Below, in pieces: positions 4,128 to 54,375 of a stretch of DNA of 64,000 nt. The notes beneath the pieces were generated by a model. That model ran no database searches. It saw only the letters and a list, made by a program, of their open reading frames with translations, and was not told the origin of the DNA. The translations under genes and the position numbers were made by a program. Source of the DNA: Polyangia bacterium (GTDB lineage Bacteria > Myxococcota_A > Polyangia > Fen-1088); NCBI GenBank assembly GCA_035696125.1, contig DASRQZ010000036.1, positions 11,110 through 75,109 on the forward strand, in the 5' to 3' direction. The number at the start of each line of letters is the position of its first letter. Position 1 is the stretch's first letter.

Positions 4128-4847
4128 ATGGAAACCGCCCGCCGCGCCCGCGTGGATCCCTTGTCATCGACGCTGTCGGACGAGGAGATCGTGGCGCGGG
4201 TCAGCGCGGGGCAGGTCGACCTCTTCGAGGTCCTGATGCGGCGGCACAACCAGCGCGTTTTCCGCGCGGCCCGCGCCATCGTGCGCGACGACGCCGAGGC
4301 CGAGGACGTCATGCAGGAGGCATACGTCCGGGCCTACGCCCAGCTCGGCCAGTTCGAGGGGCGGGCCCAGTGGTCGACCTGGGTGACCCGCATCGCAGTC
4401 AACGAAGCCCTGGGACGACTCCGGCGTGGCGGGCGATTCGTCCACACCGATCTCGACCGTGAACAGGAGGCCAAGGTGGATCGAAGCGACGAGGCCTGGC
4501 GGAACGCGAACGGAGGCTCGGCGCCCTTCCCGGTGGGCCCCGAAGATCAGGCCGCCGCGCGCGAGCTGGGCGGATTCCTGGAGCACGCGATGGACTCGCT
4601 GCCCGACATCTACCGGACCGTCTTCGTGCTGCGCGAAGTCGAGGAGATGTCGACCGCCGAGGCGGCCACCACCCTCGACATCAGCGAGGAGCTGGTCAAG
4701 GTGCGCCTGCACCGCGCGCGCGCCGCGCTCCGCCAGCGCCTGGACGAGCGCGTCGGCTCGGCGCTACGCGGCGTTTACGACTTCCACTTGACCCGCTGCG
4801 ACCGGGTGGTCGCGGCGGTGATGGCCAGGATCGGCCCGCGACGGTAA
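4128..4847 (+). CDS. ECF-type RNA polymerase sigma factor with short C-terminal extension
   Basis: The sigma-2 region (RRHNQRVFRAARAIVRDDAEAEDVMQEAYVRAY, WSTWVTRIAVNEAL) and the sigma-4 region (VFVLREVEEMSTAEAATTLDISEELVKVRLHRARAAL) are both present. There is a ~45-aa extension. No anti-sigma gene is adjacent. Confidence 0.9.
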   Translation: METARRARVDPLSSTLSDEEIVARVSAGQVDLFEVLMRRHNQRVFRAARAIVRDDAEAEDVMQEAYVRAYAQLGQFEGRAQWSTWVTRIAVNEALGRLRRGGRFVHTDLDREQEAKVDRSDEAWRNANGGSAPFPVGPEDQAAARELGGFLEHAMDSLPDIYRTVFVLREVEEMSTAEAATTLDISEELVKVRLHRARAALRQRLDERVGSALRGVYDFHLTRCDRVVAAVMARIGPRR

Positions 4848-4866
4848 GGGCGTGCAGTTCGGTTAA

Positions 4867-5203
4867 GGGCCTCGGGCCTCGGGCCTCGGGCCTCGGGCTT
4901 CAGGCCTCGGGTAAGTTGAGGATTACGAGTGCCTGCAGAGCCCCTGATCATACGGCTGTAGCCAGCCCCGCGGCGGATTTGGCTCTGCAGACCGAATCGC
5001 GCGGCGATGGGGAAACCCGCCGTCGCTCGATAAGCGTCGGGGACGAGGTCGTCTGCCAATAGCAACGTCCGTAGGCGGTACGGTTCTCTGCTCATGCCCA
5101 GACTCATCGGCCGTGGCGTCGCAAGAGTTTCCCCCGCAGTCCAGGTCCGACGCCCCCGAAGTCCGAAGTCTGAGGCCTGAGGCCTGAGGCCCGAGGGGCT
5201 TCG
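4867..5203. repeat. Hairpin element E1: (GGGCCTCG)n arm, 240-bp interior, complementary (CTGAGGCC/CCGAGG)n arm
   Basis: The left arm 4867-4911 is gggcctcg x4 plus ggcttcaggcctcggg. The right arm 5153-5203 is ccgaagtccgaagtctgaggcctgaggcctgaggcccgagg. The arms are reverse complements in type. Confidence 0.8.
4925..5107 (-). pseudogene. Four-helix-bundle protein (23S rRNA intervening-sequence protein family) remnant
   Basis: The minus-strand translation is SREPYRLRTLLLADDLVPDAYRATAGFPIAARFGLQSQIRRGAGYSRMIRGSAG. It fits the family consensus A..L...VY..T..FP..ER.GL.SQIRRAA.SI..NIAEG.G for the first ~55 residues. The second half of the family is missing. Confidence 0.5.
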
Positions 5204-5234
5204 ATCGGAGGCTTGCCTCCGCAAGGCCTCCCGC

Positions 5235-5403
5235 CTGACGAATCCCCGCGAATCTCGTTCGCGAGTCCGTCCTGCGCCGTCTTCCCGTCGGCGTCAGCGT
5301 CGGCGTCAGCGTGGGCGACTCGAACGGGGACAGAGCCAGAATCGCCGACGCCGACGCCGACGCTGACGCCGACGGATGAATCGTATTCGTGGGGATTCGT
5401 CAG
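5235..5403. repeat. Hairpin element E2 (169 bp), arms of GGCGTC / GACGCC hexamer repeats
   Basis: The outer stem pairs ctgacgaatccccgcgaat (5235-5253) with attcgtggggattcgtcag (5385-5403). The inner stem pairs ccgtcggcgtcagcgtcggcgtcagcgtgggcgac (5285-5319) with tcgccgacgccgacgccgacgctgacgccgacgg (5342-5375). Confidence 0.8.
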
Positions 5404-5451
5404 CCTGCCCCCTGCCGGGCTCTCCCCCGCGTCCATCTCGGTGGCCGGCCC

Positions 5452-6516
5452 TCAGGGCATCTTGAGATACTGCTCGGGTACGTCGGCGAAACCCCACTTG
5501 GCCAGCTGACGCGCCCAGGTGCCCAGGTTCTCCTTGGTGACCCGCACCGGCTCCATCGGGATGATCGTGGGCACGTTCTTCTTGAAGTAGATCTTGTCGA
5601 TCACGGTGGTGACGCCGACCTGGCCCCACAGGTAAGGCGCCTGTGCGATCAGCACCGGCGTCAGCCCCTTCTCGACGTAGGACAGCTCGGGCGCCAGCGC
5701 GTCGGCCGCGACGATCTTCACCTTCCTGGGATCGAGATCGGTGAGCAAGGTCTTGGTGTAGAGCGCCCAGCCGCCGACCATGGCCCAGCCCTTGATGTCG
5801 GGGTAGGCGTTGTTGACCCGGATGACCTCGGAGACGGCGTCCTGCGGGGTCTCGATGTGATAGAAGGTGCCGACGATCTGGATACCGGGGTGCTTGGCCG
5901 CCTCGGCCTTCACCGCATCGACGCGGCGGCGCAGGTTGGGCGCGTTCTGGTTGCCGGCCAGGATCGCGACCCGCCCGCGGCCGTCGAGCTGCTTGACCAG
6001 CTCGACCATCACGTCCTGCCCCATGCGCCGATCATCGACGCCGTAGAACGAGAAGCGCTTGGACTGAGGCGCGTCGCTGTCGAAGGTCATGACCGGCACA
6101 CCGCGCGCGACCGCGTCGTCGATCGCGCCCGTCACCTTGCCGGCATCGGAGCACGACACCAGGATGGCGTTCGCGCCTTCGTTGACCGCCTGGGCGATGC
6201 GCTGCGCCTGGATCTGGCCATCCTCCTGCGGCGGCGTGAGCCAGGCGATCTCGATCGGCACGCCGAGCTTGAGCGACAGCTCCTTGGCGGTGGTCTCGGC
6301 GCCGGTGCGCGCCGAAAGGAATACCGGGTTGGTCGAGCTCTTGGCGATCATCGCGATCCGGATCGGGTGCGCCGCCTCCGGTACCGGCTCGGCGCCGCCG
6401 CCGGGCGTCGTCGGGCCGCCGCCGGGGCCGCGTCCCCGGTTGCAGGACGCGAACATCAGCGAGACCGACAGCGTGGCGGCCCAGACAACCAGGAAGTCAA
6501 TGGCCGGCACGGCCAT
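5452..6516 (-). CDS. Sugar ABC transporter substrate-binding lipoprotein (RbsB/LacI-type periplasmic binding fold)
   Basis: ATG 6516 sits directly after GGAGG. The signal has the lipobox LMFASC. The body (IRIAMIAKSSTNPVFLSARTGAE, ILVSCSDAGKVTGAIDDAVARGVPVMTFDSD) is typical of type-I sugar-binding proteins. Confidence 0.85.
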   Translation of the reverse strand: MAVPAIDFLVVWAATLSVSLMFASCNRGRGPGGGPTTPGGGAEPVPEAAHPIRIAMIAKSSTNPVFLSARTGAETTAKELSLKLGVPIEIAWLTPPQEDGQIQAQRIAQAVNEGANAILVSCSDAGKVTGAIDDAVARGVPVMTFDSDAPQSKRFSFYGVDDRRMGQDVMVELVKQLDGRGRVAILAGNQNAPNLRRRVDAVKAEAAKHPGIQIVGTFYHIETPQDAVSEVIRVNNAYPDIKGWAMVGGWALYTKTLLTDLDPRKVKIVAADALAPELSYVEKGLTPVLIAQAPYLWGQVGVTTVIDKIYFKKNVPTIIPMEPVRVTKENLGTWARQLAKWGFADVPEQYLKMP

Positions 6517-6575
6517 CCTCCCGCCGACTCGGCGGGGCTTGCAACCGGACCCGCGCGGGGGCGCGCCCAGTATCG

Positions 6576-6946
6576 TCACCCTGGCTCCCTTGCTCGCGGG
6601 CCACGCGCACCGCTCGCCGTCAGGCGGCGCGCCGCGAAGCGGGTGCTCGACTGATCCAACCTGACGGCGATGGCGATGGCGCAGCCGATGACGATCCATT
6701 CGTAGTTCTGGTCGAAGTGCAAGGTGCGGATCGATGGCGGATGAGAACGATCAGGATCGCCCCCAGCATGGCGTTGATCGCGCTCCCTCATCTCCGCTGA
6801 GGCTGCCCCCCCGCACCACGGCGGAGGCCATGACGTATAACTCATATGCGGTGGCGTCTCCACAGGGCGCCGAGCGTCGTCGCGAGCCCGACGATGACCA
6901 GCAGGAGCCCGGCCTGCTGCGAGCCGAGCAGGCGGCGGGCGCCCAT
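6576..6946 (-). pseudogene. Ribose-type ABC permease remnant (internal deletion plus frameshift)
   Basis: The minus strand from ATG 6946 reads MGARRLLGSQQAGLLLVIVGLATTLGALWRRHRI*, which is a permease N-terminus. Further downstream, AINAMLGAILIVLIR in one frame continues as LHFDQNYEWIVIGCAIAIAVRLDQ in another, which is a permease C-terminus. About 250 residues of the middle are absent. Confidence 0.5.
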
Positions 6947-9407: not shown

Positions 9408-10782
9408 GGGGGATGGGGACCCCGGATCGATGAACGGGGATCTCGATATCGTGGCCGCGCTGGCGCGCGCGGCGGCGCCGCCGATGGCGCCGCTGCAACG
9501 CATGCGCGGCCTGGAGGCGGTCGTGCGCCGGGGTGAGGCGCGCCAGCGCAAGCGCCTCGTCTTCTCGGTCGCGGCCGGGCTGGCGGCGTGCGGGCTGGTG
9601 GCGGCGGGGCTGATCGGCGTGCACGCGGTGCGCGGCTCCTCGCGCAGACCGGCCGGCGCCCCCGAGGGCAGTCCGATCTCCTACCGTGTCGAGCACGGCG
9701 AGATCGGAGACGGCGGCTATCTGCGTGCGCACGATCGAGAGCGTGATCGAGTCGGCGTCGGGTTGCGCTTTGCCGAGGGCAGCGAGCTGCGGTTGGCCGC
9801 GGGCGCGCGCGGCCGGCTGACCAGCGTCGACGCCCAGGGCGCGCGCTTCGCGATCGAACAGGGCGAAGCGCAGGTCAGCGTCACGCCGCGCCCAGCAGCG
9901 CGCTGGCTGATCGACGCCGGTCCCTTCCTGATCACCGTGCAGGGCACCCGCTTCAGCGCGGCCTGGGACGGCGCGACCGAGCGGCTGGACATCCGGATGA
10001 AGCACGGGCTGGTCTCGGTGACCGGGCCGGTCGCCGACGGCAAGATCGCGGTGCGCGCGGGCCAGCGTCTCACCATCAACGTGCAGAAGCGCGAAGTGCT
10101 GCTGCGTCCAAGCGAGGATCTGCCGCCCGACACGGCCGACGAGGAGGCCCCGCGCGCCAGATCCGGCACCGAATCCGACAACGAATCCGGCAACAAGTCT
10201 GACAAGTCTGACAAGTCTGAAATGATGTCCAGCGGCGCGACCGGGGCCAGCGCACCACCCGCCCGCGCCGCCCGTGCCACGCGCGCGACCGCCGGGGCGG
10301 TCGCCGCCCTGCGCCGGCGCGGCTGGACGGCGGCGCTGGCCGCCGGCGATTTCCAGACCGTCCTGGAGGAGGCCCAGCATCGCGGCTGGCGGCGCTCGCT
10401 GGCGGAAGCGCGCAGCGAGGATCTGGCGGCGCTGGCCGATGCGGCCCGCTATCTGCGCCGCGACGATCTGGCGCGTCAGGCGCTGATCACCCAGCGCCAT
10501 CGCTTTCCCCGCACCGATCGCGCGCACGAGGCGGCCTTCCTGCTCGGGCGGTTGAGCGAGACCGGCCGCGACGGCGATCTGCCGGCGCTGTCCTGGTACG
10601 ACCGCTACCTCGACGAGGTACCCCGCGGGGCCTACGCCGCGGAGGCGATGGGGCGCAAGATGACCGCGACCGAGAGGCTCAAAGGTGTGACAGCGGCGCG
10701 GGAGATCGCGCAAGAGTACCTGCGCCGGTTTCCGCATGGCACCTACGCGGGCACCGCCCGCGCTCTGGCGGGAACGCGCTAG
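9394..10782 (+). CDS. FecR-like anti-sigma factor with TM helix and C-terminal TPR-like domain
   Basis: It has an N-terminal cytoplasmic segment and the TM helix FSVAAGLAACGLVAAGLIGV. The FecR-type beta domain reads LRLAAGARGRLTSVDAQGARFAIEQGEAQVSV...ITVQGTRFS. A KSDKSDKSE linker leads to a helical-repeat C-terminus. Confidence 0.85.
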   Translation: MGRTEGDGDPGSMNGDLDIVAALARAAAPPMAPLQRMRGLEAVVRRGEARQRKRLVFSVAAGLAACGLVAAGLIGVHAVRGSSRRPAGAPEGSPISYRVEHGEIGDGGYLRAHDRERDRVGVGLRFAEGSELRLAAGARGRLTSVDAQGARFAIEQGEAQVSVTPRPAARWLIDAGPFLITVQGTRFSAAWDGATERLDIRMKHGLVSVTGPVADGKIAVRAGQRLTINVQKREVLLRPSEDLPPDTADEEAPRARSGTESDNESGNKSDKSDKSEMMSSGATGASAPPARAARATRATAGAVAALRRRGWTAALAAGDFQTVLEEAQHRGWRRSLAEARSEDLAALADAARYLRRDDLARQALITQRHRFPRTDRAHEAAFLLGRLSETGRDGDLPALSWYDRYLDEVPRGAYAAEAMGRKMTATERLKGVTAAREIAQEYLRRFPHGTYAGTARALAGTR

Positions 10783-10943
10783 TCCCCTGGAATGGTGAAG
10801 GCTTCCAAATGTCGGCGAAGCATCTTCGTTTCTGGCAAGGCGCGACGAGGGCGAATACTAGACGTATTTAACCGAGGAGCAACGCAGCCAGGGACGAAGA
10901 GGACCGGCGAGATTTGGAAGAATTCACCTTTCCAGGGGACTAG
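10779..10943. repeat. Hairpin element E4a (165-bp imperfect palindrome)
   Basis: ctagtcccctggaatggtgaaggcttccaaat... pairs with ...atttggaagaattcacctttccaggggactag. Inner pairing: cttcgtttctggc with gccagggacgaag. The left end overlaps the anti-sigma stop codon. Confidence 0.8.
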
Positions 10944-10949
10944 GAGTCT

Positions 10950-11137
10950 GGTGTCAAACCGGCTTCAGGCTCCGGGCTTCAGGCTTCGGGATGGACAGGG
11001 GCGCCCATTTCCGTCGAAAGAGCGTCTTTCCGTCGCTGTAAATAGTGCCCTCCTTACACCACCGGTGATCGGCGCCCCGCGCGGGTGGAGTCTGAAGCCT
11101 GAACCTGGGGCCCGAAGCCCGAAGCCCGTTTGACACC
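10950..11137. repeat. Hairpin element E4b (188 bp), GGCTTCRGG type with perfect 10-bp termini
   Basis: The termini are ggtgtcaaac and gtttgacacc. The arms are ccggcttcaggctccgggcttcaggcttcggg and cctgaagcctgaacctggggcccgaagcccgaagccc. Confidence 0.8.
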
Positions 11138-11169
11138 ACCCTCCTAGGCACGACCGGAGCGAAACCCTG

Positions 11170-13051: not shown

Positions 13052-13106
13052 CAGGCTTCGGGCTTCGGGCTTTCGGGCTTCGGGCTTCGGGCTTCGGGCG
13101 TCGGGC
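13040..13106. repeat. Element E5: small hairpin over the stop codon followed by (GGCTTCGG)x6 tandem repeat
   Basis: The hairpin is ccgaagcc gtagca ggcttcgg, followed by gcttcgggctttcgggcttcgggcttcgggcttcggg. It lies between convergent genes. Only a single-unit opposing arm is present. Confidence 0.75.
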
Positions 13107-14588
13107 TCAGATGCGGGGATGCTTCGAGGAGATCGCCTTGCTCCCAGCTTTCACCCTCGCGCCCCCCTTGACCCTGGCCTTGCCCTTCGCGCCCGCGATC
13201 GACAGCGCCGGACGCGTGCACTGCCGCATGATCTCCGCTTGCGCGGCGGGCGGCGGTAGCGCCGGCGCCGACCAGCCGCGGCACAGTTGACCGACCGCGC
13301 CCGGATCGGCGTCCGCGCCGGCGGCGCAGTAAAGGCCGACGCCGTCGGGCCGGGCCGCGAACAGCGCGCGCGTCGTTTCGGGCCGGGCGATCGTCGGGTC
13401 GTCGAGTCGCGCGCTGAGCAGGTTCACCACCTCGATGCGGCGCGCCGCCTGCCCCGGATCGGGGAACGGGGCCGGCTGCCGGTGCATGTCGCGGATAGGC
13501 ACGATCTCGATCGCGCGCAGCACCAGGCGCCCACCCGGCGCCATCCGTTTCAGATGCAGGCGCGCCAGCAGGCCGTAGTCGCGACAGCCGGCGAACTCGG
13601 GCACGGCGCCCATGTCGCGCGCGCCGCGCAGCATGAAGTTGCCCAGGCCATAGAAGATCGGCACGCCGTGGCGGATCTCGACGCCGCGCACGACGTGGGC
13701 GTGATGGCCCACCACCAGGTCGGCGCCGTAACGGTCGGCGGCGGCCCGCCATTCCGTCAGCTGGCGGTCGTCGGCGCGCACGTCTTTCTCTTCGCCGTAG
13801 TGAATCGACAGGATCCGGTAGTCGGCCTTGGTCTCGCCGAGACGGCGCGTGACCTCGCGCCAGTCCTCGTCGATGCGGTAGGCGACGGTGCCCGGCTTGT
13901 CGGCCGTCGCGCGGTGGGCGTTGATGTTGTTGGTGACGATCCCGATCGCCGAGAAGGCGACCCGCCCCACCGGCAGCAGCAGCTCGACCGGGCGGCTGGC
14001 CTGCTCGCGGTTGAGGCCGATGCCGCTGAAATGCAGGCGGCCCTCGGCGGCCAGCGCGCCGAGGTGGCGCACCGTCTCGCGCGCGCCGTCGGCGCCAAAG
14101 TCGTAGGCGTGGTTGTTCGCGGCCGACACCAGATTGAACCCCAGCGTGGTCAGCGCGCGCACGCCAGCGGGGTGCGAGCGGAAACCGAACGGCACCGCCT
14201 GCCCCTTGTCGGCGGCGTGCAGGTCGTTGCGGTCGGTGACCACGGTCTCGAGGTTCATGAAGTTGAGATCCCCGTCGATCAGCGTGGCCACCTTGGCCGA
14301 CAGCTCGGTCCACGGGGTGGGCGTCGGGCCCTCGAGCACGCCGCGCGCGTCGACGGCGGTGCCGCTGCGGTTGAGCCCGACGTCACCGACCAGCACCAGC
14401 GTCAGCGTGTCAGGAACCGGCGCGACCACCACCGACGTTGGCGCGCCGACCCGGACGCCGGTGTCAGCCCCGGACACGGAGACGCCCACGCCGACGCCGC
14501 CACCGACGCCGCCACCGACAACGACGCCGACGCCGACGATCAGGATGCCGAGAGCGCGGGCGGCGCGCGCGCGGATCCGGCCCTTCAC
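13107..14588 (-). CDS. CapA-family protein (poly-gamma-glutamate capsule synthesis-type metallophosphatase)
   Basis: The PGA_cap motifs are LVLVGDVGLNR, LNFMNLETVV, FNLVSAANNHAYDFG, SIHYGEE, LVVGHHAHVVRGVE and IFYGLGNF. The GTG start overlaps the OsmC stop as GTGA. Confidence 0.9.
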   Translation of the reverse strand: MKGRIRARAARALGILIVGVGVVVGGGVGGGVGVGVSVSGADTGVRVGAPTSVVVAPVPDTLTLVLVGDVGLNRSGTAVDARGVLEGPTPTPWTELSAKVATLIDGDLNFMNLETVVTDRNDLHAADKGQAVPFGFRSHPAGVRALTTLGFNLVSAANNHAYDFGADGARETVRHLGALAAEGRLHFSGIGLNREQASRPVELLLPVGRVAFSAIGIVTNNINAHRATADKPGTVAYRIDEDWREVTRRLGETKADYRILSIHYGEEKDVRADDRQLTEWRAAADRYGADLVVGHHAHVVRGVEIRHGVPIFYGLGNFMLRGARDMGAVPEFAGCRDYGLLARLHLKRMAPGGRLVLRAIEIVPIRDMHRQPAPFPDPGQAARRIEVVNLLSARLDDPTIARPETTRALFAARPDGVGLYCAAGADADPGAVGQLCRGWSAPALPPPAAQAEIMRQCTRPALSIAGAKGKARVKGGARVKAGSKAISSKHPRI

Positions 14589-25747: not shown

Positions 25748-25807
25748 CAATCAGTTCTCAGTTGTCAGTTTCAGTACTGCCGACTGATGACTGATGACTG
25801 ATGACTC
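25745..25807. repeat. Hairpin element E6, CAGT-TCA / TGA-CTGA heptamer-repeat type
   Basis: gacaatcagttctcagttgtcagtttcagt faces actgccgactgatgactgatgactgatgactc, between convergent genes. Confidence 0.65.
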
Positions 25808-28690: not shown

Positions 28691-28769
28691 CGGCCCCGAG
28701 GGGCCTCTGGCTTCGGGCCTCGGACCTCCAGTGAAGAGTCCTCCAGAGGTCCGAGGCCCGAGGCCCTCG
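28691..28769. repeat. Hairpin element E7, GGCCTCGG type with CCTCCAGTGAAGAGTCCTCC apex
   Basis: ggggcctctggcttcgggcctcggacctccag tgaagagtc ctccagaggtccgaggcccgaggccctcg. It is the same family and orientation as E8. Confidence 0.8.
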
Positions 28770-28868: not shown

Positions 28869-31487
28869 ATGGGTCGGACGCCCCCGTTTTTGGCTGGCTT
28901 TTTGTCTACGCGGATCTGGTGGGTGGCGCTCGTGGCAGCCCTGGCAGCCACCGCCTGCGGGCGATCAGATTTGTTCAGCGCGCGCCGCTGTCCGCCCGGC
29001 CAGACCGGTTGCAACTCACCCGACGGCGGGATCGGACCCGGGGGATCAGCGGGCGGCGGCGGGCTCGGCGGCCCCGGCGGGTTCGGTGGCCCGGGCGGCG
29101 CCGGCGGATCCGCCGGTGCCGGAGGGCGCGGCGGCTTCGGCGGCTTCGGCGGCTTCGGCGGTATCGGCGGCCGCGGCGGCGGCGGGGGGCGCGGAGCGGG
29201 CGGATTCGGCGGCTTCGGAGGCGTCGGTGGCGCGGGCGGCGGCGTTGGCGGGCGTGGCGGCGCCGGTGGCTGCGGACCGGGCCTGCCCGAGCTCTGCTCC
29301 GACGGTGTCGATAACAACTGCAATGGTTTCGTCGACTGCGGCGATCCCGGCTGCTTCGGTAGCCGCGCCTGCATCGTCCCCGGCCGGGAGATTTGCAACA
29401 ACGGCATCGACGACGATGACGATCGCCTGATCGACTGCGCCGACCCCGACTGCATGGGCAGCGTCGCGTGCATCCCGGTCATGGGCACCGAGATCTGCGA
29501 CAACGGCGTCGACGACAACCGCGACAACCTGGCCGACTGCGCCGATCCCCAGTGCGTCACCTTCCCCGGCTGCCTCACGGTCGCTTGTCAAGCTGACGTC
29601 GACTTCGGCACGCTGGCAGCGCGTGGCGCCGACGTCAAACAGATCGTGAACACCAGCGGCGCCCCGAACAGCTACGCCAGCTGCGTGCCGCCGGGTGGCC
29701 GCGGCCGGGTGGGCCGCTTCCGGCTGGGGGCGTCCGCCGACGTGCGGGTCGACGTCACCAGCCAGGCCGCCGGCTCCGCCCACGGGGTCTCGGTCTTCCG
29801 GGCCGGCGTCAATCAAGCCTGTGACCAGAACCTGGTGGCCTGCTTCGACGCGGGCGATGGCTCCGCGACCCACACCTTCGCCGGCCTCACGCCGGGGACG
29901 TACTGGGTGATCGTGGAATCGCGACCGGGTCTGGCCGGCGCCGTCGTCGTCCGGCTGTCGACCGGATCGGCCACCGTGAACGAGGTATGCAACAACGGTG
30001 TCGACGATGACGGCAACGGGCTCACTGACTGTCAGGACCTGAGCTGTCAGACGTCCCCGCTGTGCTCGGTGCGGCAGTGCGTGGCCGACGTGGCGCTGGG
30101 CGCGCTGGTGATGGACGGCCCGGGGCGCACCGCCAGCCTGGACACCACCGCGGGCGCCAACCGCTATCACCCGACCTGCGTGGGCGCCTCCGACGGGGGC
30201 GACGCGACGGTCGGCTTCACCCTGCCGGAGGCGGGAGGCATCCTGCTGAACTACATGCAGACCGGAAGTGCAAGCCACGGCTTTGCGCTGTTCCCGGCGG
30301 CGGGTCCTGGCCTGCCCTGCGACACCAACGAGAACGGCTGCGTCTTCCCGGCGCCGGCGCCGGGCGGCAGCGGGGGTGGGATTGCGTTCTCCAACCGTCC
30401 CGCGGGCCGTTACATTTTGATCATCAAGGCGCGCAGCCGGGCCGGCGAGGGTGCGGTCACGGTTCAGCTGTCGGCGTTCTCCAACCGCCGGGTCGAGCTG
30501 TGCAACAACCGCATCGACGACGACGGCAACGGCCTCACCGATTGCTCCGATCCCGCCTGCTTCGGCGTGGCGGGCTGCCCGGCGACGGCGTGTGTCCCGG
30601 ACATCGATCTCGGCACCATCGCTCCCGGCACCATCGTGAACCAGATGGTCGACGTCAGCGCCGGTCGTGACCTGTACCGGACCCGCTGCGGGCGCGGCAA
30701 CGGCAAGGAGCAAGTGCTGCGCTTCCACGCGACGTCCCCCATGGGCCTTTTCATCTCCTGCACCGAGACCGGCTCCCAGGTCCTGCAGCTCACCCAGCAG
30801 ATCGGGGTGCTCGACGCCTGCGACGCCAACCCCTTCAATTGCGCCGATCCCAGCGTGCTGAGCTTCGGGTGCAACTTCGTGATGCCGGGGCTGCAACCGG
30901 GCGACTGGAATCTGATAGTCGAAGGTTTCCAGCTCGGCAGCGAGGGCACGGTGAATCTCACGGTGGGCGGCGTCGCTCCCACGACCACCGAGATCTGCAA
31001 CAACGGCGTCGACGACGACAACGACGGCGCCACCGACTGCGCCGATCGCAAGTGCGTGACCTCCCCACTGTGCACGCCGTTCGCCTGCCGGGCGGACACT
31101 CTCCTCGGCGTGCTGCCGCTCAACGGGACACCGACCGTGGCCAGCGCCACGACCACCGGCGCGGGCGATGATCAACAAGTCAGCTGCTCCTCGGCTCCAG
31201 GCGGCCAGGACCAGGTGATCGATTTCGAGCTGCCCGGGACCGCCGACCTCACCATCCGCTGGGCCCAGATCGGCACCCACGACTTCGAGCTGTTCGCCAA
31301 CGACGGCGCGTTGTTCGCGTGCGACGCCGGCGCGTCGCTGGCGTGCATCGCGACCACCGACCAGCTCCCCGGAGAGCAGGTCCTGAGGCGGCTTCCGGCC
31401 GGCCGCTATCACCTGGTCATCAACGCCGACGCCGCCACACGGGAGGGCGTCGTCGGTCTGCAGCTCATCGGCGTCCTGTCGCCCTAG
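28869..31487 (+). CDS. Modular lipoprotein: Gly/Arg/Phe-rich tether, six Cys/Asp-rich CxNGxDDDxxGxxDCxDxxC motifs, four ~140-aa beta-sandwich-like domains
   Basis: The lipobox is LAATACG. The GGFGG/RGG low-complexity region is encoded at 29040-29280. An example of the repeated motif is ICNNGIDDDDDRLIDCADPDC. Four related domains each start C(Q/V/R)(A/P)D..(F/L)G. Confidence 0.85.
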   Translation: MGRTPPFLAGFLSTRIWWVALVAALAATACGRSDLFSARRCPPGQTGCNSPDGGIGPGGSAGGGGLGGPGGFGGPGGAGGSAGAGGRGGFGGFGGFGGIGGRGGGGGRGAGGFGGFGGVGGAGGGVGGRGGAGGCGPGLPELCSDGVDNNCNGFVDCGDPGCFGSRACIVPGREICNNGIDDDDDRLIDCADPDCMGSVACIPVMGTEICDNGVDDNRDNLADCADPQCVTFPGCLTVACQADVDFGTLAARGADVKQIVNTSGAPNSYASCVPPGGRGRVGRFRLGASADVRVDVTSQAAGSAHGVSVFRAGVNQACDQNLVACFDAGDGSATHTFAGLTPGTYWVIVESRPGLAGAVVVRLSTGSATVNEVCNNGVDDDGNGLTDCQDLSCQTSPLCSVRQCVADVALGALVMDGPGRTASLDTTAGANRYHPTCVGASDGGDATVGFTLPEAGGILLNYMQTGSASHGFALFPAAGPGLPCDTNENGCVFPAPAPGGSGGGIAFSNRPAGRYILIIKARSRAGEGAVTVQLSAFSNRRVELCNNRIDDDGNGLTDCSDPACFGVAGCPATACVPDIDLGTIAPGTIVNQMVDVSAGRDLYRTRCGRGNGKEQVLRFHATSPMGLFISCTETGSQVLQLTQQIGVLDACDANPFNCADPSVLSFGCNFVMPGLQPGDWNLIVEGFQLGSEGTVNLTVGGVAPTTTEICNNGVDDDNDGATDCADRKCVTSPLCTPFACRADTLLGVLPLNGTPTVASATTTGAGDDQQVSCSSAPGGQDQVIDFELPGTADLTIRWAQIGTHDFELFANDGALFACDAGASLACIATTDQLPGEQVLRRLPAGRYHLVINADAATREGVVGLQLIGVLSP

Positions 31488-31506
31488 CTGCCAGGGCGTC
31501 CCCCTT

Positions 31507-31667
31507 GGAACACCGAACGGTTTGAAGTTGGGCCATCGCTGGTTAGGGGCCTCGGACCTCGGGCCTCGGACCCTCCAGTGAAGAGTTCTCCTGAGGCCTG
31601 AGGCCCGAAGCCAGAAGCCCCTTGAGCGCGATGGCCTAGCTTTCAAATCGTTCGGTGCTCTAGTTCC
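31507..31667. repeat. Hairpin element E8 (161 bp), GGCCTCGG type with the same apex as E7
   Basis: The inner part is ggggcctcggacctcgggcctcggaccctccagtgaagagttctcctgaggcctgaggcccgaagccagaagcccc. The outer stem pairs ggaacaccgaacggtttgaagttgggccatcgc with gcgatggcctagctttcaaatcgttcggtgctctagttcc. Confidence 0.8.
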
Positions 31668-54242: not shown

Positions 54243-54271
54243 TCGCGCGACCGACTGCTCAGGGGTTCACT

Positions 54272-54375
54272 CCCGAATACGGACGCCGACGCCGAAGCCG
54301 ATGCCGACGGGTCCGGATCCGGATCTGACGTCGGCGTCGGCGTCGGCGTGGGCGTCGGCGTGGGCGTCCGGGATC
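54272..54375. repeat. Hairpin element E11, GACGCC / GGCGTC type
   Basis: cccgaatacggacgccgacgccgaagccgatgccgacgggtccgga faces tccggatctgacgtcggcgtcggcgtcggcgtgggcgtcggcgtgggcgtccggg. The apex is ggatccggatc. Confidence 0.8.

Follow-up and report, generated by a model that had tools for sequence, protein, structure and literature searches.

We analysed a 64,000-nt stretch of a Polyangia bacterium genome (contig DASRQZ010000036.1; hereafter the window, with a G+C content of 69.8% over its 64 kb) and found that positions 4856-5213 are, as judged from alignment to an intact relative, a dead copy of a compact cassette, in which a gene whose four-helix-bundle product has about 125 residues lies inside inverted arrays of 7-nt (sometimes 8-nt) repeats. 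Intact genes of the same family (PF05635/TIGR02436, the S23p/Avd-like family) lie inside such arrays in other genomes, and the cassette is best explained, with a probability of roughly 0.6, as a selfish or semi-selfish element that would be copied at the DNA level, would leave derivatives by deletion between its arms and would be excised from transcripts by RNase III. PF05635/TIGR02436 is a very large family of small proteins with solved structures and with no known role outside diversity-generating retroelements. Intergenic tandem heptamers of bacteria have been catalogued since 1990, their origin and function unexplained. The ORF-bearing intervening sequences (IVSs) of 23S rRNA, where ORF stands for open reading frame, have been under suspicion of mobility for thirty years. 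One conserved architecture would join this protein family, the heptamer repeats and the IVSs, and questions about them become testable.

The pseudogene and its arms

A preliminary description of the window had read a decayed gene of this family from the hairpin's minus strand (SREPYRLRTLLLADDLVPDAYRATAGFPIAARFGLQSQIRRGAGYSRMIRGSAG), and that reading is correct. Generic models gave weak matches, below their cut-offs: the fragment scored 18.2 bits against PF05635 (cut-off 33.8; E = 0.003, profile positions 8-39 of 106) and 16.6 bits against TIGR02436 (cut-off 24), and NF008911 matched it with E = 5e-4. Homologues and a subfamily profile were therefore needed for the family assignment. Three Polyangia proteins annotated as 'four helix bundle' matched the fragment with E-values from 1e-15 to 2e-8 and with identities of up to 89%, the closest being P0001 (89% identity, E = 1e-15); exact-sequence look-ups of these three proteins returned no contigs. 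A profile of 32 intact relatives, run against the six-frame translation of the 64 kb, gave one significant match, at this locus (E = 2.8e-19, profile positions 1-44), and tblastn with the intact relative P0004 as a query recovered residues 1-48 (E = 5e-26) and residues 112-132 (E = 0.003). The proposed profile search of the interior thus did find a match, through the subfamily profile, and the family assignment stands on this profile and on close homologues, with PF05635 and TIGR02436 themselves below their cut-offs.

The 5' part of the pseudogene comprises 44 codons (MSREPYRLRTLLLADDLVPDAYRATAGFPIAARFGLQSQIRRGA; 4964-5095, minus strand), which corresponds to about 44 of the 106 PF05635 profile positions. 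It starts with an ATG at 5095..5093, and an alternative ATG lies upstream at 5107..5105. According to the preliminary description, the gene then degenerates. Alignment to the intact locus L172, which is about 90% identical in nucleotide sequence outside the deletion, shows instead a clean in-frame internal deletion with both gene ends retained. At the junction 4963-4964 (minus strand), 168 nt (56 codons) are missing in the global alignment to L172 with its own 48-nt insertion removed. The remaining 3' part (GYSRMIR...; 4900-4963, minus strand), matching P0004 residues 112-132, covers about the 20 last codons and is shifted out of frame by a single extra G in the run 4941-4944, besides small indels. 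In the ancestral frame it reads ALQALVILNLPEA*, ending at a TGA (4902..4900) inside one of the arms. The 5' leader between the other arm and the start codon (5096-5154, minus strand) is near-identical to the leader of L172 (GGACCTGGAC.GCGGGGGAAACTCTTGCGACGCC.CGGCCGATGAG.CTGGGC). With 56 codons gone and a frameshift, the complete four-helix frame of about 110-130 residues is absent, and the window copy is by its sequence a pseudogene of the family, a non-working member.

The enclosing inverted repeat (4865-4911/5155-5201) has arms of 47 nt with 81% complementarity and a spacer of 243 nt. Arm A (4867-4911) consists of (GGGCCTC)x6.4 tandem heptamers (Tandem Repeats Finder: period 7, 6.4 copies, 89% matches); the 8-nt unit (GGGCCTCG)n given earlier was wrong, the true unit having 7 nt. 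In the orientation of the gene, arm A is the downstream, C-rich side, and by the L172 alignment it contains the ancestral TGA on the minus strand. Arm B (5155-5201), upstream of the gene, is a complementary array of 47 nt (CCGAAGT x2, CTGAGGC x3.9). A terminal motif outside arm A, TTCGGTTAAGG (4856-4866), matches the L172 terminus CCGTTCGGYTAAGGGCC, which itself lies within the inverted ends of L172. The hairpin region of 361 nt was more stable than its dinucleotide shuffles on both strands (z = -4.8 for plus and -4.5 for minus), and none of 100 shuffles equalled it. As a separate observation, the right end of L172 carries three copies of GAGGGCCCTTAACCGA.

Intact relatives inside inverted heptamer arrays

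Direct reading of an intact gene upstream of ftsZ (L001) revealed (GGCCTCR)n before and (YGAGGCC)n after the gene, and the same layout was found in another genomic context (L011). In an alignment of 45 homologues, almost all C-termini end in PEARGPRPEA, which is a translation of the arm; because many protein tails are translated repeats, cassette ends confuse gene calling. A second protein search, started from the longest of the three Polyangia proteins, found 307 relatives, nearly all of them 120-135 residues long. Intact relatives scored above the curated cut-offs (92-96 bits for TIGR02436 and 89-95 bits for PF05635) and matched XCC0516 (PDB 2GSC), a pentameric four-helix bundle and the closest solved structure, with E = 6e-30. 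PF05635 was the single Pfam match of the gene in full elements, and no transposase domain was found. There were no relatives among viral contigs and no match to the PADLOC defence models. With 31 invariant columns in 32 relatives and no premature stop in 57 of 63 copies, the conservation pattern clearly points to purifying selection on the four-helix-bundle protein.

For a systematic test, one genome per species was scanned, which yielded 80 loci from Myxococcota, Acidobacteriota (Vicinamibacterales, Holophagaceae and Solibacteraceae), Planctomycetota and others. Each gene's upstream flank of 220 nt was compared by alignment with its downstream flank of equal length, taken as the reverse complement, with 'genes' shifted by 900-1900 nt within the same loci as controls and a threshold score of at least 30. 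Inverted repeats reached this score at 63 of 78 independent loci, compared with 4 of 433 shifted controls, and when a period of 7 or 8 was required in addition, 54 of the 78 loci and none of the 433 controls remained. The period was 7 in 46 of these 54 arm pairs and 8 in the other 8. Some of the loci that fell short are artefacts; at L049, for example, an arm seems lost because Ns mask the right arm in the record. The preliminary description had noted an ORF held in a stem between protein genes and had named intact members in the same genome without inverted tandem-repeat flanks as an observation that would speak against its reading. That outcome did not arise, and an ORF held in a stem is the rule for intact relatives between ordinary protein genes, at the frequency given above.

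The arms are long arrays with 3-10 units on each side, and their sequences differ widely. There were 32 consensus units, among them GGCCTCG, GGCTTCA, GGCTCAA, GTCCTTG, GGGGCTT, CGTCGTC, GTCAGTT and GGTCTTGG. Nevertheless, when 75 right flanks were ranked as complements of a given left flank, the flank of the same locus came first in 34 cases and within the first three in 47, and 84% of own flank pairs reached the threshold, compared with 11.7% of cross pairs. On these comparisons, arm units vary freely, yet the two arms of a pair stay complementary, which is the pattern of compensatory arm change. The position of the gene within the cassette also recurs: the median distance from the left arm to the start codon is 49 nt, and among 57 intact copies the stop codon falls within the right arm in 23 and at most 10 nt before it in 9 more. 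The G-rich array came first in 50 of 63 loci. A polarity rule placing the G-rich arm upstream in every locus was considered and rejected, since an inverted repeat reads alike on both strands.

Protein-coding genes flank or adjoin the window cassette and each of the 90-odd relatives examined, and the layout recurs in at least six bacterial phyla, being conserved over Myxococcota, Acidobacteriota, Planctomycetota, Gemmatimonadota, Cyanobacteriota and Alphaproteobacteria. Complete plasmids with the gene-in-arms layout come from Anabaena, Nostoc, Pseudanabaena, Calothrix, Picosynechococcus, Gemmatirosa and Azospirillum, with arm units such as GGTGACA in Anabaena sp. 90, GGGAGTA in Nostoc edaphicum, AGCTAAA in Pseudanabaena and Calothrix, GGGCAGGA in Gemmatirosa and GGACAGA/GGACGGA in Azospirillum. 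Cassettes also sit inside operons, including CRISPR-cas operons. Among the cyanobacterial plasmid cassettes L173, L175, L180 and L174, the cas6/cas4 interval is occupied in two genera and the cas10/cmr3 interval in a third, and one cassette lies antisense between the pair of genes for ribonucleotide reductase. '23S rRNA IVP' had been counted as a CRISPR-associated gene in an earlier survey (PMC10910872), an association that may reflect cassette insertion instead of a CRISPR function.

Copying, loss and rival explanations

The preliminary description suggested that the cassette is mobile and that cargo-less hairpins are its miniature derivatives. Orthologous sites bear on the first suggestion. 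We collected ten orthologous loci at a site between the convergent genes moeA and a porin gene. Five of them (L058, L181, L049, L033 and L047), which form a clade with MoeA identities of 88% or more, carry a full cassette with units GGTCTTG, GGGGCTT or GGTCTTGR, the gene of L181 having a 1-nt frameshift from a missing base. In L183, L186 and L185, the stop codons are 8, 7 and 39 nt apart and no repeat is present; L182 has small unrelated hairpins, and in L184 the moeA stop is followed directly by an empty (GGTCTTGA)2 hairpin, whose octamer unit is also that of L033. The arms of the cassettes abut the stop codons of both neighbouring genes at this site. The interior of L047 is inverted relative to the flanking genes, opposite to that of L033, and the interiors of L052 and L078 probably have opposite orientations as well. 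Past the empty octamer hairpin of L184, a gene with a cNMP-binding domain lies between direct repeats of the right half of the hairpin (GCTACGGCGGGCARGCAAGACCTCA; 3713-4316 of L184), an arrangement that looks like the capture or insertion of another cargo.

Copies within one genome resemble each other. In all three metagenome-assembled genomes (MAGs) with multiple copies, the copies are mutually closest, with 89-97% identity as against at most 82% to other genomes, and their flanks are unrelated. In the MAG PNBO01, three dispersed copies (L030, L040 and L090) share a TAG in place of an invariant Tyr codon (at about position 2560 in each locus), and a fourth, L077, is frameshifted upstream of that codon. 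Since the copies are multiple although all of them are broken, copying or homogenisation needs no intact gene in cis. The PNBO01 copies also have a small GCGGGCGAAGCCCGC stem-loop in common, just outside the right arm.

Partial internal deletions form a series, to which the window copy, P0002, P0003 and L026 belong. In P0002 and P0003 the N-terminal part runs straight into the arm translation, at different points, and in L026 the interior is shortened. A different rearrangement was found in L172, where a 48-nt in-frame insertion in the gene (945-992) is a copy of the locus's own left end (the arm and about 14 nt of leader).

The cargo-less hairpins of the window are real. One lies at 28691-28769 (fold z of -4.2 and -5.3) and the second, whose boundaries we refined, at 31540-31625 (fold z of -3.3 and -5.8); both have GGGCCTC/GGACCTC arms, and the second is nested in an outer inverted repeat (31486-31663) with CTAG at its bounds. 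They have a common loop of 17-19 nt (motif CTCCAGTGAAGAGTCCTCC, CTCCAGTGAAGAGTYCTCC; 28726-28744 and 31573-31591), which was found nowhere else in all fetched loci. One end of the 31540 hairpin, GGTTAGGGGCCTCGG, resembles the cassette end GGTTAAGGGCCTCGG, and the other empty hairpin has a short subterminal motif in common with one cassette end (CCAATCGAGGGCCTC compared with CCGATCGAAGCCCCTC). The suggestion that empty hairpins are miniature derivatives is supported in part, by the deletion series and by the empty hairpin of L184, whereas the two in the window have no detectable gene remnant and resemble the cassette in short subterminal motifs only; given the former, the descent of these two from the cassette is plausible on sequence grounds. 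The loop has the same strand orientation in both hairpins, and the arm variants are mirror images, so that the loop seems flipped relative to the arms.

In the explanation we favour, the cassette would spread to new intergenic sites by copying of its DNA, with no need for an intact copy in cis, and deletion between the arms would yield hairpins with ever less cargo, some of them empty. RNase III cleaves long RNA duplexes and has little sequence preference. By analogy with the rRNA case, both arms in a read-through host transcript could pair into a long double-stranded stem to be cut by RNase III, and the release of the cassette RNA would make insertions tolerable in untranslated regions, operons and 23S rRNA. 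An ORF-bearing 23S rRNA IVS would then be a special insertion site of the cassette. The Coxiella IVS has the same architecture as the cassette, and the rRNA IVS therefore looks like such a site.

Several results weigh against this explanation. Mobility is supported in part, by presence and absence at an orthologous site and by dispersed, mutually closest copies: no target-site duplication was seen between the filled L058 and L181 and the empty L183 and L186 (72-90% diverged at MoeA), and in the gene lists examined the cassettes had neither a transposase nor a recombinase nor a reverse transcriptase beside them. The likeness of copies from one genome could be due to gene conversion. Movement is, from the conservation of sites in acidobacterial families, rare at best: a cassette is found at one stable site in Holophagaceae, Solibacteraceae and other Acidobacteriota, with tryptophan dioxygenase and short-chain dehydrogenase genes on one side and a luciferase-like monooxygenase gene on the other. 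The arm units differ at this site, which suggests long residence and concerted change of both arms. In about 10% of relatives, no arms were found within 220 nt. For the empty hairpins of the window, the loop gave no convincing alignment to any part of the cassette, and the subfamily profile found no four-helix-bundle remnant in them in the six-frame 64 kb. Nor did mismatches in the arms favour the coding strand, with 76 of the G-U type compared with 94 of the A-C type, which gives no sign of selection on a sense RNA stem over complementarity at the DNA level; arm complementarity may be maintained in the DNA or in both transcripts. A scan of the window hairpin region detected no promoter-like or terminator-like sites. 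Finally, a syntenic counterpart of the window locus, sought in metagenomes via the sigma factor, was L092 alone, where the corresponding stretch (960-2611) has a sugar ABC transporter ATPase gene between the binding-protein and sigma-factor genes. The window has no such ATPase gene at 4848-5451, and two hairpin elements occupy that space instead. The gene order of L092 differs, so it is not a clean empty site for the window cassette.

The main rival, which we judge unlikely although not remote, is a resident partnership like that of repetitive extragenic palindromes (REPs) and RAYT proteins. Here the hairpins would be primary, made by the host or arising or homogenised in place by slippage or hairpin-templated repair, and the protein would be their dedicated binding or maintenance factor; the gene would merely sit inside one hairpin, and the empty hairpins would be the primary product and not deletion derivatives. 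The purifying selection on the protein, with its invariant columns and rare premature stops, fits this rival, as does the acidobacterial site that is kept between Holophagaceae and Solibacteraceae while the arm unit differs. Empty hairpins are also far more numerous than cassettes in the window. Avd, a relative of the family, has nucleic acid and a polymerase as its binding partners in diversity-generating retroelements, and paired inverted heptamer arrays are abundant in Xanthomonas, the home of XCC0516 (PMC4692102). However, the unit changes between GGGGCTT, GGTCTTG and GGTCTTGR within one clade of near-identical cassettes, which makes a protein reading the unit sequence unlikely. Copies with a nonsense codon are still multiple and dispersed, presence and absence with empty sites of 7-8 nt resembles insertion or precise loss of the whole unit, and partial-deletion intermediates exist.

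A second alternative, which appears improbable, is an invertible switch, in which the arms would recombine and flip the interior, toggling the gene or read-through into a neighbour, and heptamer slippage would add phase variation. The opposite interiors at the moeA/porin site and the flipped loop of the two empty hairpins are as expected from such a switch, and the ORF tail and stop codon lie within the repeat array. Repeat number varies among samples of the ftsZ locus (L001-L010) and among Coxiella strains. Yet the orientation was constant in all ten ftsZ-locus samples, no recombinase is linked to the cassettes, and no promoter was found on either side. General recombination moreover inverts the sequence between any long inverted repeats, and a function is not required for that.

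The weakest alternative, a coincidence in which a pseudogene fragment lies between unrelated simple repeats serving as a terminator hairpin for the convergent sigma-factor (4128-4847, plus strand) and periplasmic sugar-binding-protein (5452-6699, minus strand) genes on either side, in a window of 70% G+C with many GC-rich repeats, is already refuted by the arm controls, by the complementarity of own partners and by the alignment to L172, whose ends are the same and whose genomic context is another; an arm contains the 3' end and the stop codon of the gene itself, and the terminator scan found the hairpin to lack a T-tract.

Known systems and other hairpins of the window

The closest known counterparts of the cassette are the 23S IVSs of Coxiella burnetii and Leptospira, in which a PF05635 ORF is likewise enclosed by stem-forming terminal inverted repeats, as it is in the window copy and the intact relatives. 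In Coxiella, 2-3 tandem heptamers (GACAGAT) precede the S23p start codon and vary between strains, RNase III cleavage takes place at the first repeat, inside a stem of 28 bp, and the ORF is decaying, with a 176-bp deletion in one strain (PMC4990558). Tandem heptamers and an ORF deletion of similar kind (168 nt in the window) are common to both. The two differ in location and in arms: the IVSs are inserted in helix 25 or 45 of the 23S rRNA gene, whereas the cassettes lie beside protein genes, with arrays on both sides and a potential 47-bp stem in the window. The window copy is not in a 23S rRNA gene, and an Rfam scan of 4700-5550 gave sub-threshold chance matches alone, with no rRNA and no other family at threshold.

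REP/REPIN-RAYT systems resemble the cassette in that a small gene lies between inverted hairpin repeats, many hairpins have no gene and the sequences are lineage-specific. However, RAYT proteins are HUH/Y1 transposases with a known DNA-cleaving activity, and REPs are unique palindromes, not tandem 7-mers. We know of no catalytic activity of the four-helix-bundle protein; an HUH/Y1 (IS200/IS605-like) domain is missing from the cassette gene, whose Pfam match is PF05635 alone and whose closest structure is 2GSC. MITEs (miniature inverted-repeat transposable elements) are similar to the empty hairpins in being short, non-coding and multicopy, with terminal inverted repeats, and in being formally derived from a longer coding element by internal deletion. 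Terminal inverted repeats and dispersed copies are found here as well, in the arms of the window copy, the two empty hairpins with the same loop and the four copies in one MAG. In contrast to MITEs, whose parent element encodes a transposase, the cassette carries the four-helix-bundle gene alone, with no transposase in or beside it; its terminal repeats are tandem arrays evolving in concert, and no target-site duplication was seen in the comparison of filled and empty moeA/porin sites.

Arrays like the cassette arms have been described as short tandemly repeated repetitive (STRR) sequences of cyanobacteria and in Xanthomonas: intergenic 7-mers, often in convergent stem-loop pairs, with lineage-specific units. 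Paired inverted GGGAATC arrays are found in Xanthomonas and heptamers in Nostoc, with no gene link described (PMC4692102), and TAACTGA repeats in Beggiatoaceae (PMC4679880). The window arrays are likewise intergenic head-to-tail 7-nt arrays in a convergent pair, and the arrays flanking the cyanobacterial plasmid cassettes are exactly of the STRR kind. The described arrays differ in that they were taken as simple-sequence or G-quadruplex elements without a gene, while the arms of the cassette bracket a specific gene family. Avd of diversity-generating retroelements is a relative of the family with a homologous four-helix-bundle fold (PMC10053308). Its context is different, as neither a reverse transcriptase nor template and variable repeats lie beside the cassettes in the gene lists examined. 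To our knowledge, Avd genes are not bracketed by heptamer arrays.

ORF-bearing 23S IVSs and their suspected mobility (PMC4990558), the kinship with Avd and heptamer arrays without a gene link are already known. What appears to be new from these comparisons is that an IVS-type cassette occurs generally and outside rRNA, has arms of tandem repeats and leaves deletion derivatives. The preliminary description knew of no account of this link, and no general link was found in the literature searched, the heptamers mentioned in passing for the Coxiella IVS being the one partial precedent (PMC4990558). In a full-text search, with most subscription journals outside its scope, no paper connected the gene family with inverted tandem repeats beyond rRNA. 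A bolder extension, which we offer as tentative, is that the PF05635 cassette might be the master form of a hairpin family across phyla, from which the 23S IVSs, the cyanobacterial STRR sequences and the paired heptamers of Xanthomonas and myxobacteria would have originated, and that an Avd-like pentameric protein might act on the stem, as DNA or RNA, to copy, maintain or protect it.

Besides the sigma-factor and binding-protein genes, a kinase gene is among the window neighbours of the cassette. Directly beside the cassette, a second nested hairpin (5235-5403) has a unique outer inverted repeat (CTGACGAATCCCCGCGAAT / ATTCGTGGGGATTCGTCAG) and inner arms of tandem 6/12-mers (CGTCGGCGTCAG)n at 5285-5321 and 5339-5375, which are 92% complementary (fold z of -10). 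A GACGCC/CGTCGG hairpin at 54271-54373 is similar to it, and in a Kofleriaceae MAG (L019) an intact gene has CGTCGTC-type arms. At 10779-10943 and 10940-11147 lie two neighbouring inverted-repeat elements, both with CTAG at their bounds, the latter with unique outer repeats (CTAGGAGTCTGGTGTCAAAC...), inner arms of GGCTTCR heptamers and a 120-nt interior without four-helix-bundle similarity. A lone (GGCTTCG)x7.6 array at 13054-13107, with no inverted partner, follows right after a stop codon. At 25751-25806, a small hairpin has TCAGTTN/GACTGAT heptamer arms, a unit type that flanks intact genes in L034 and L088.

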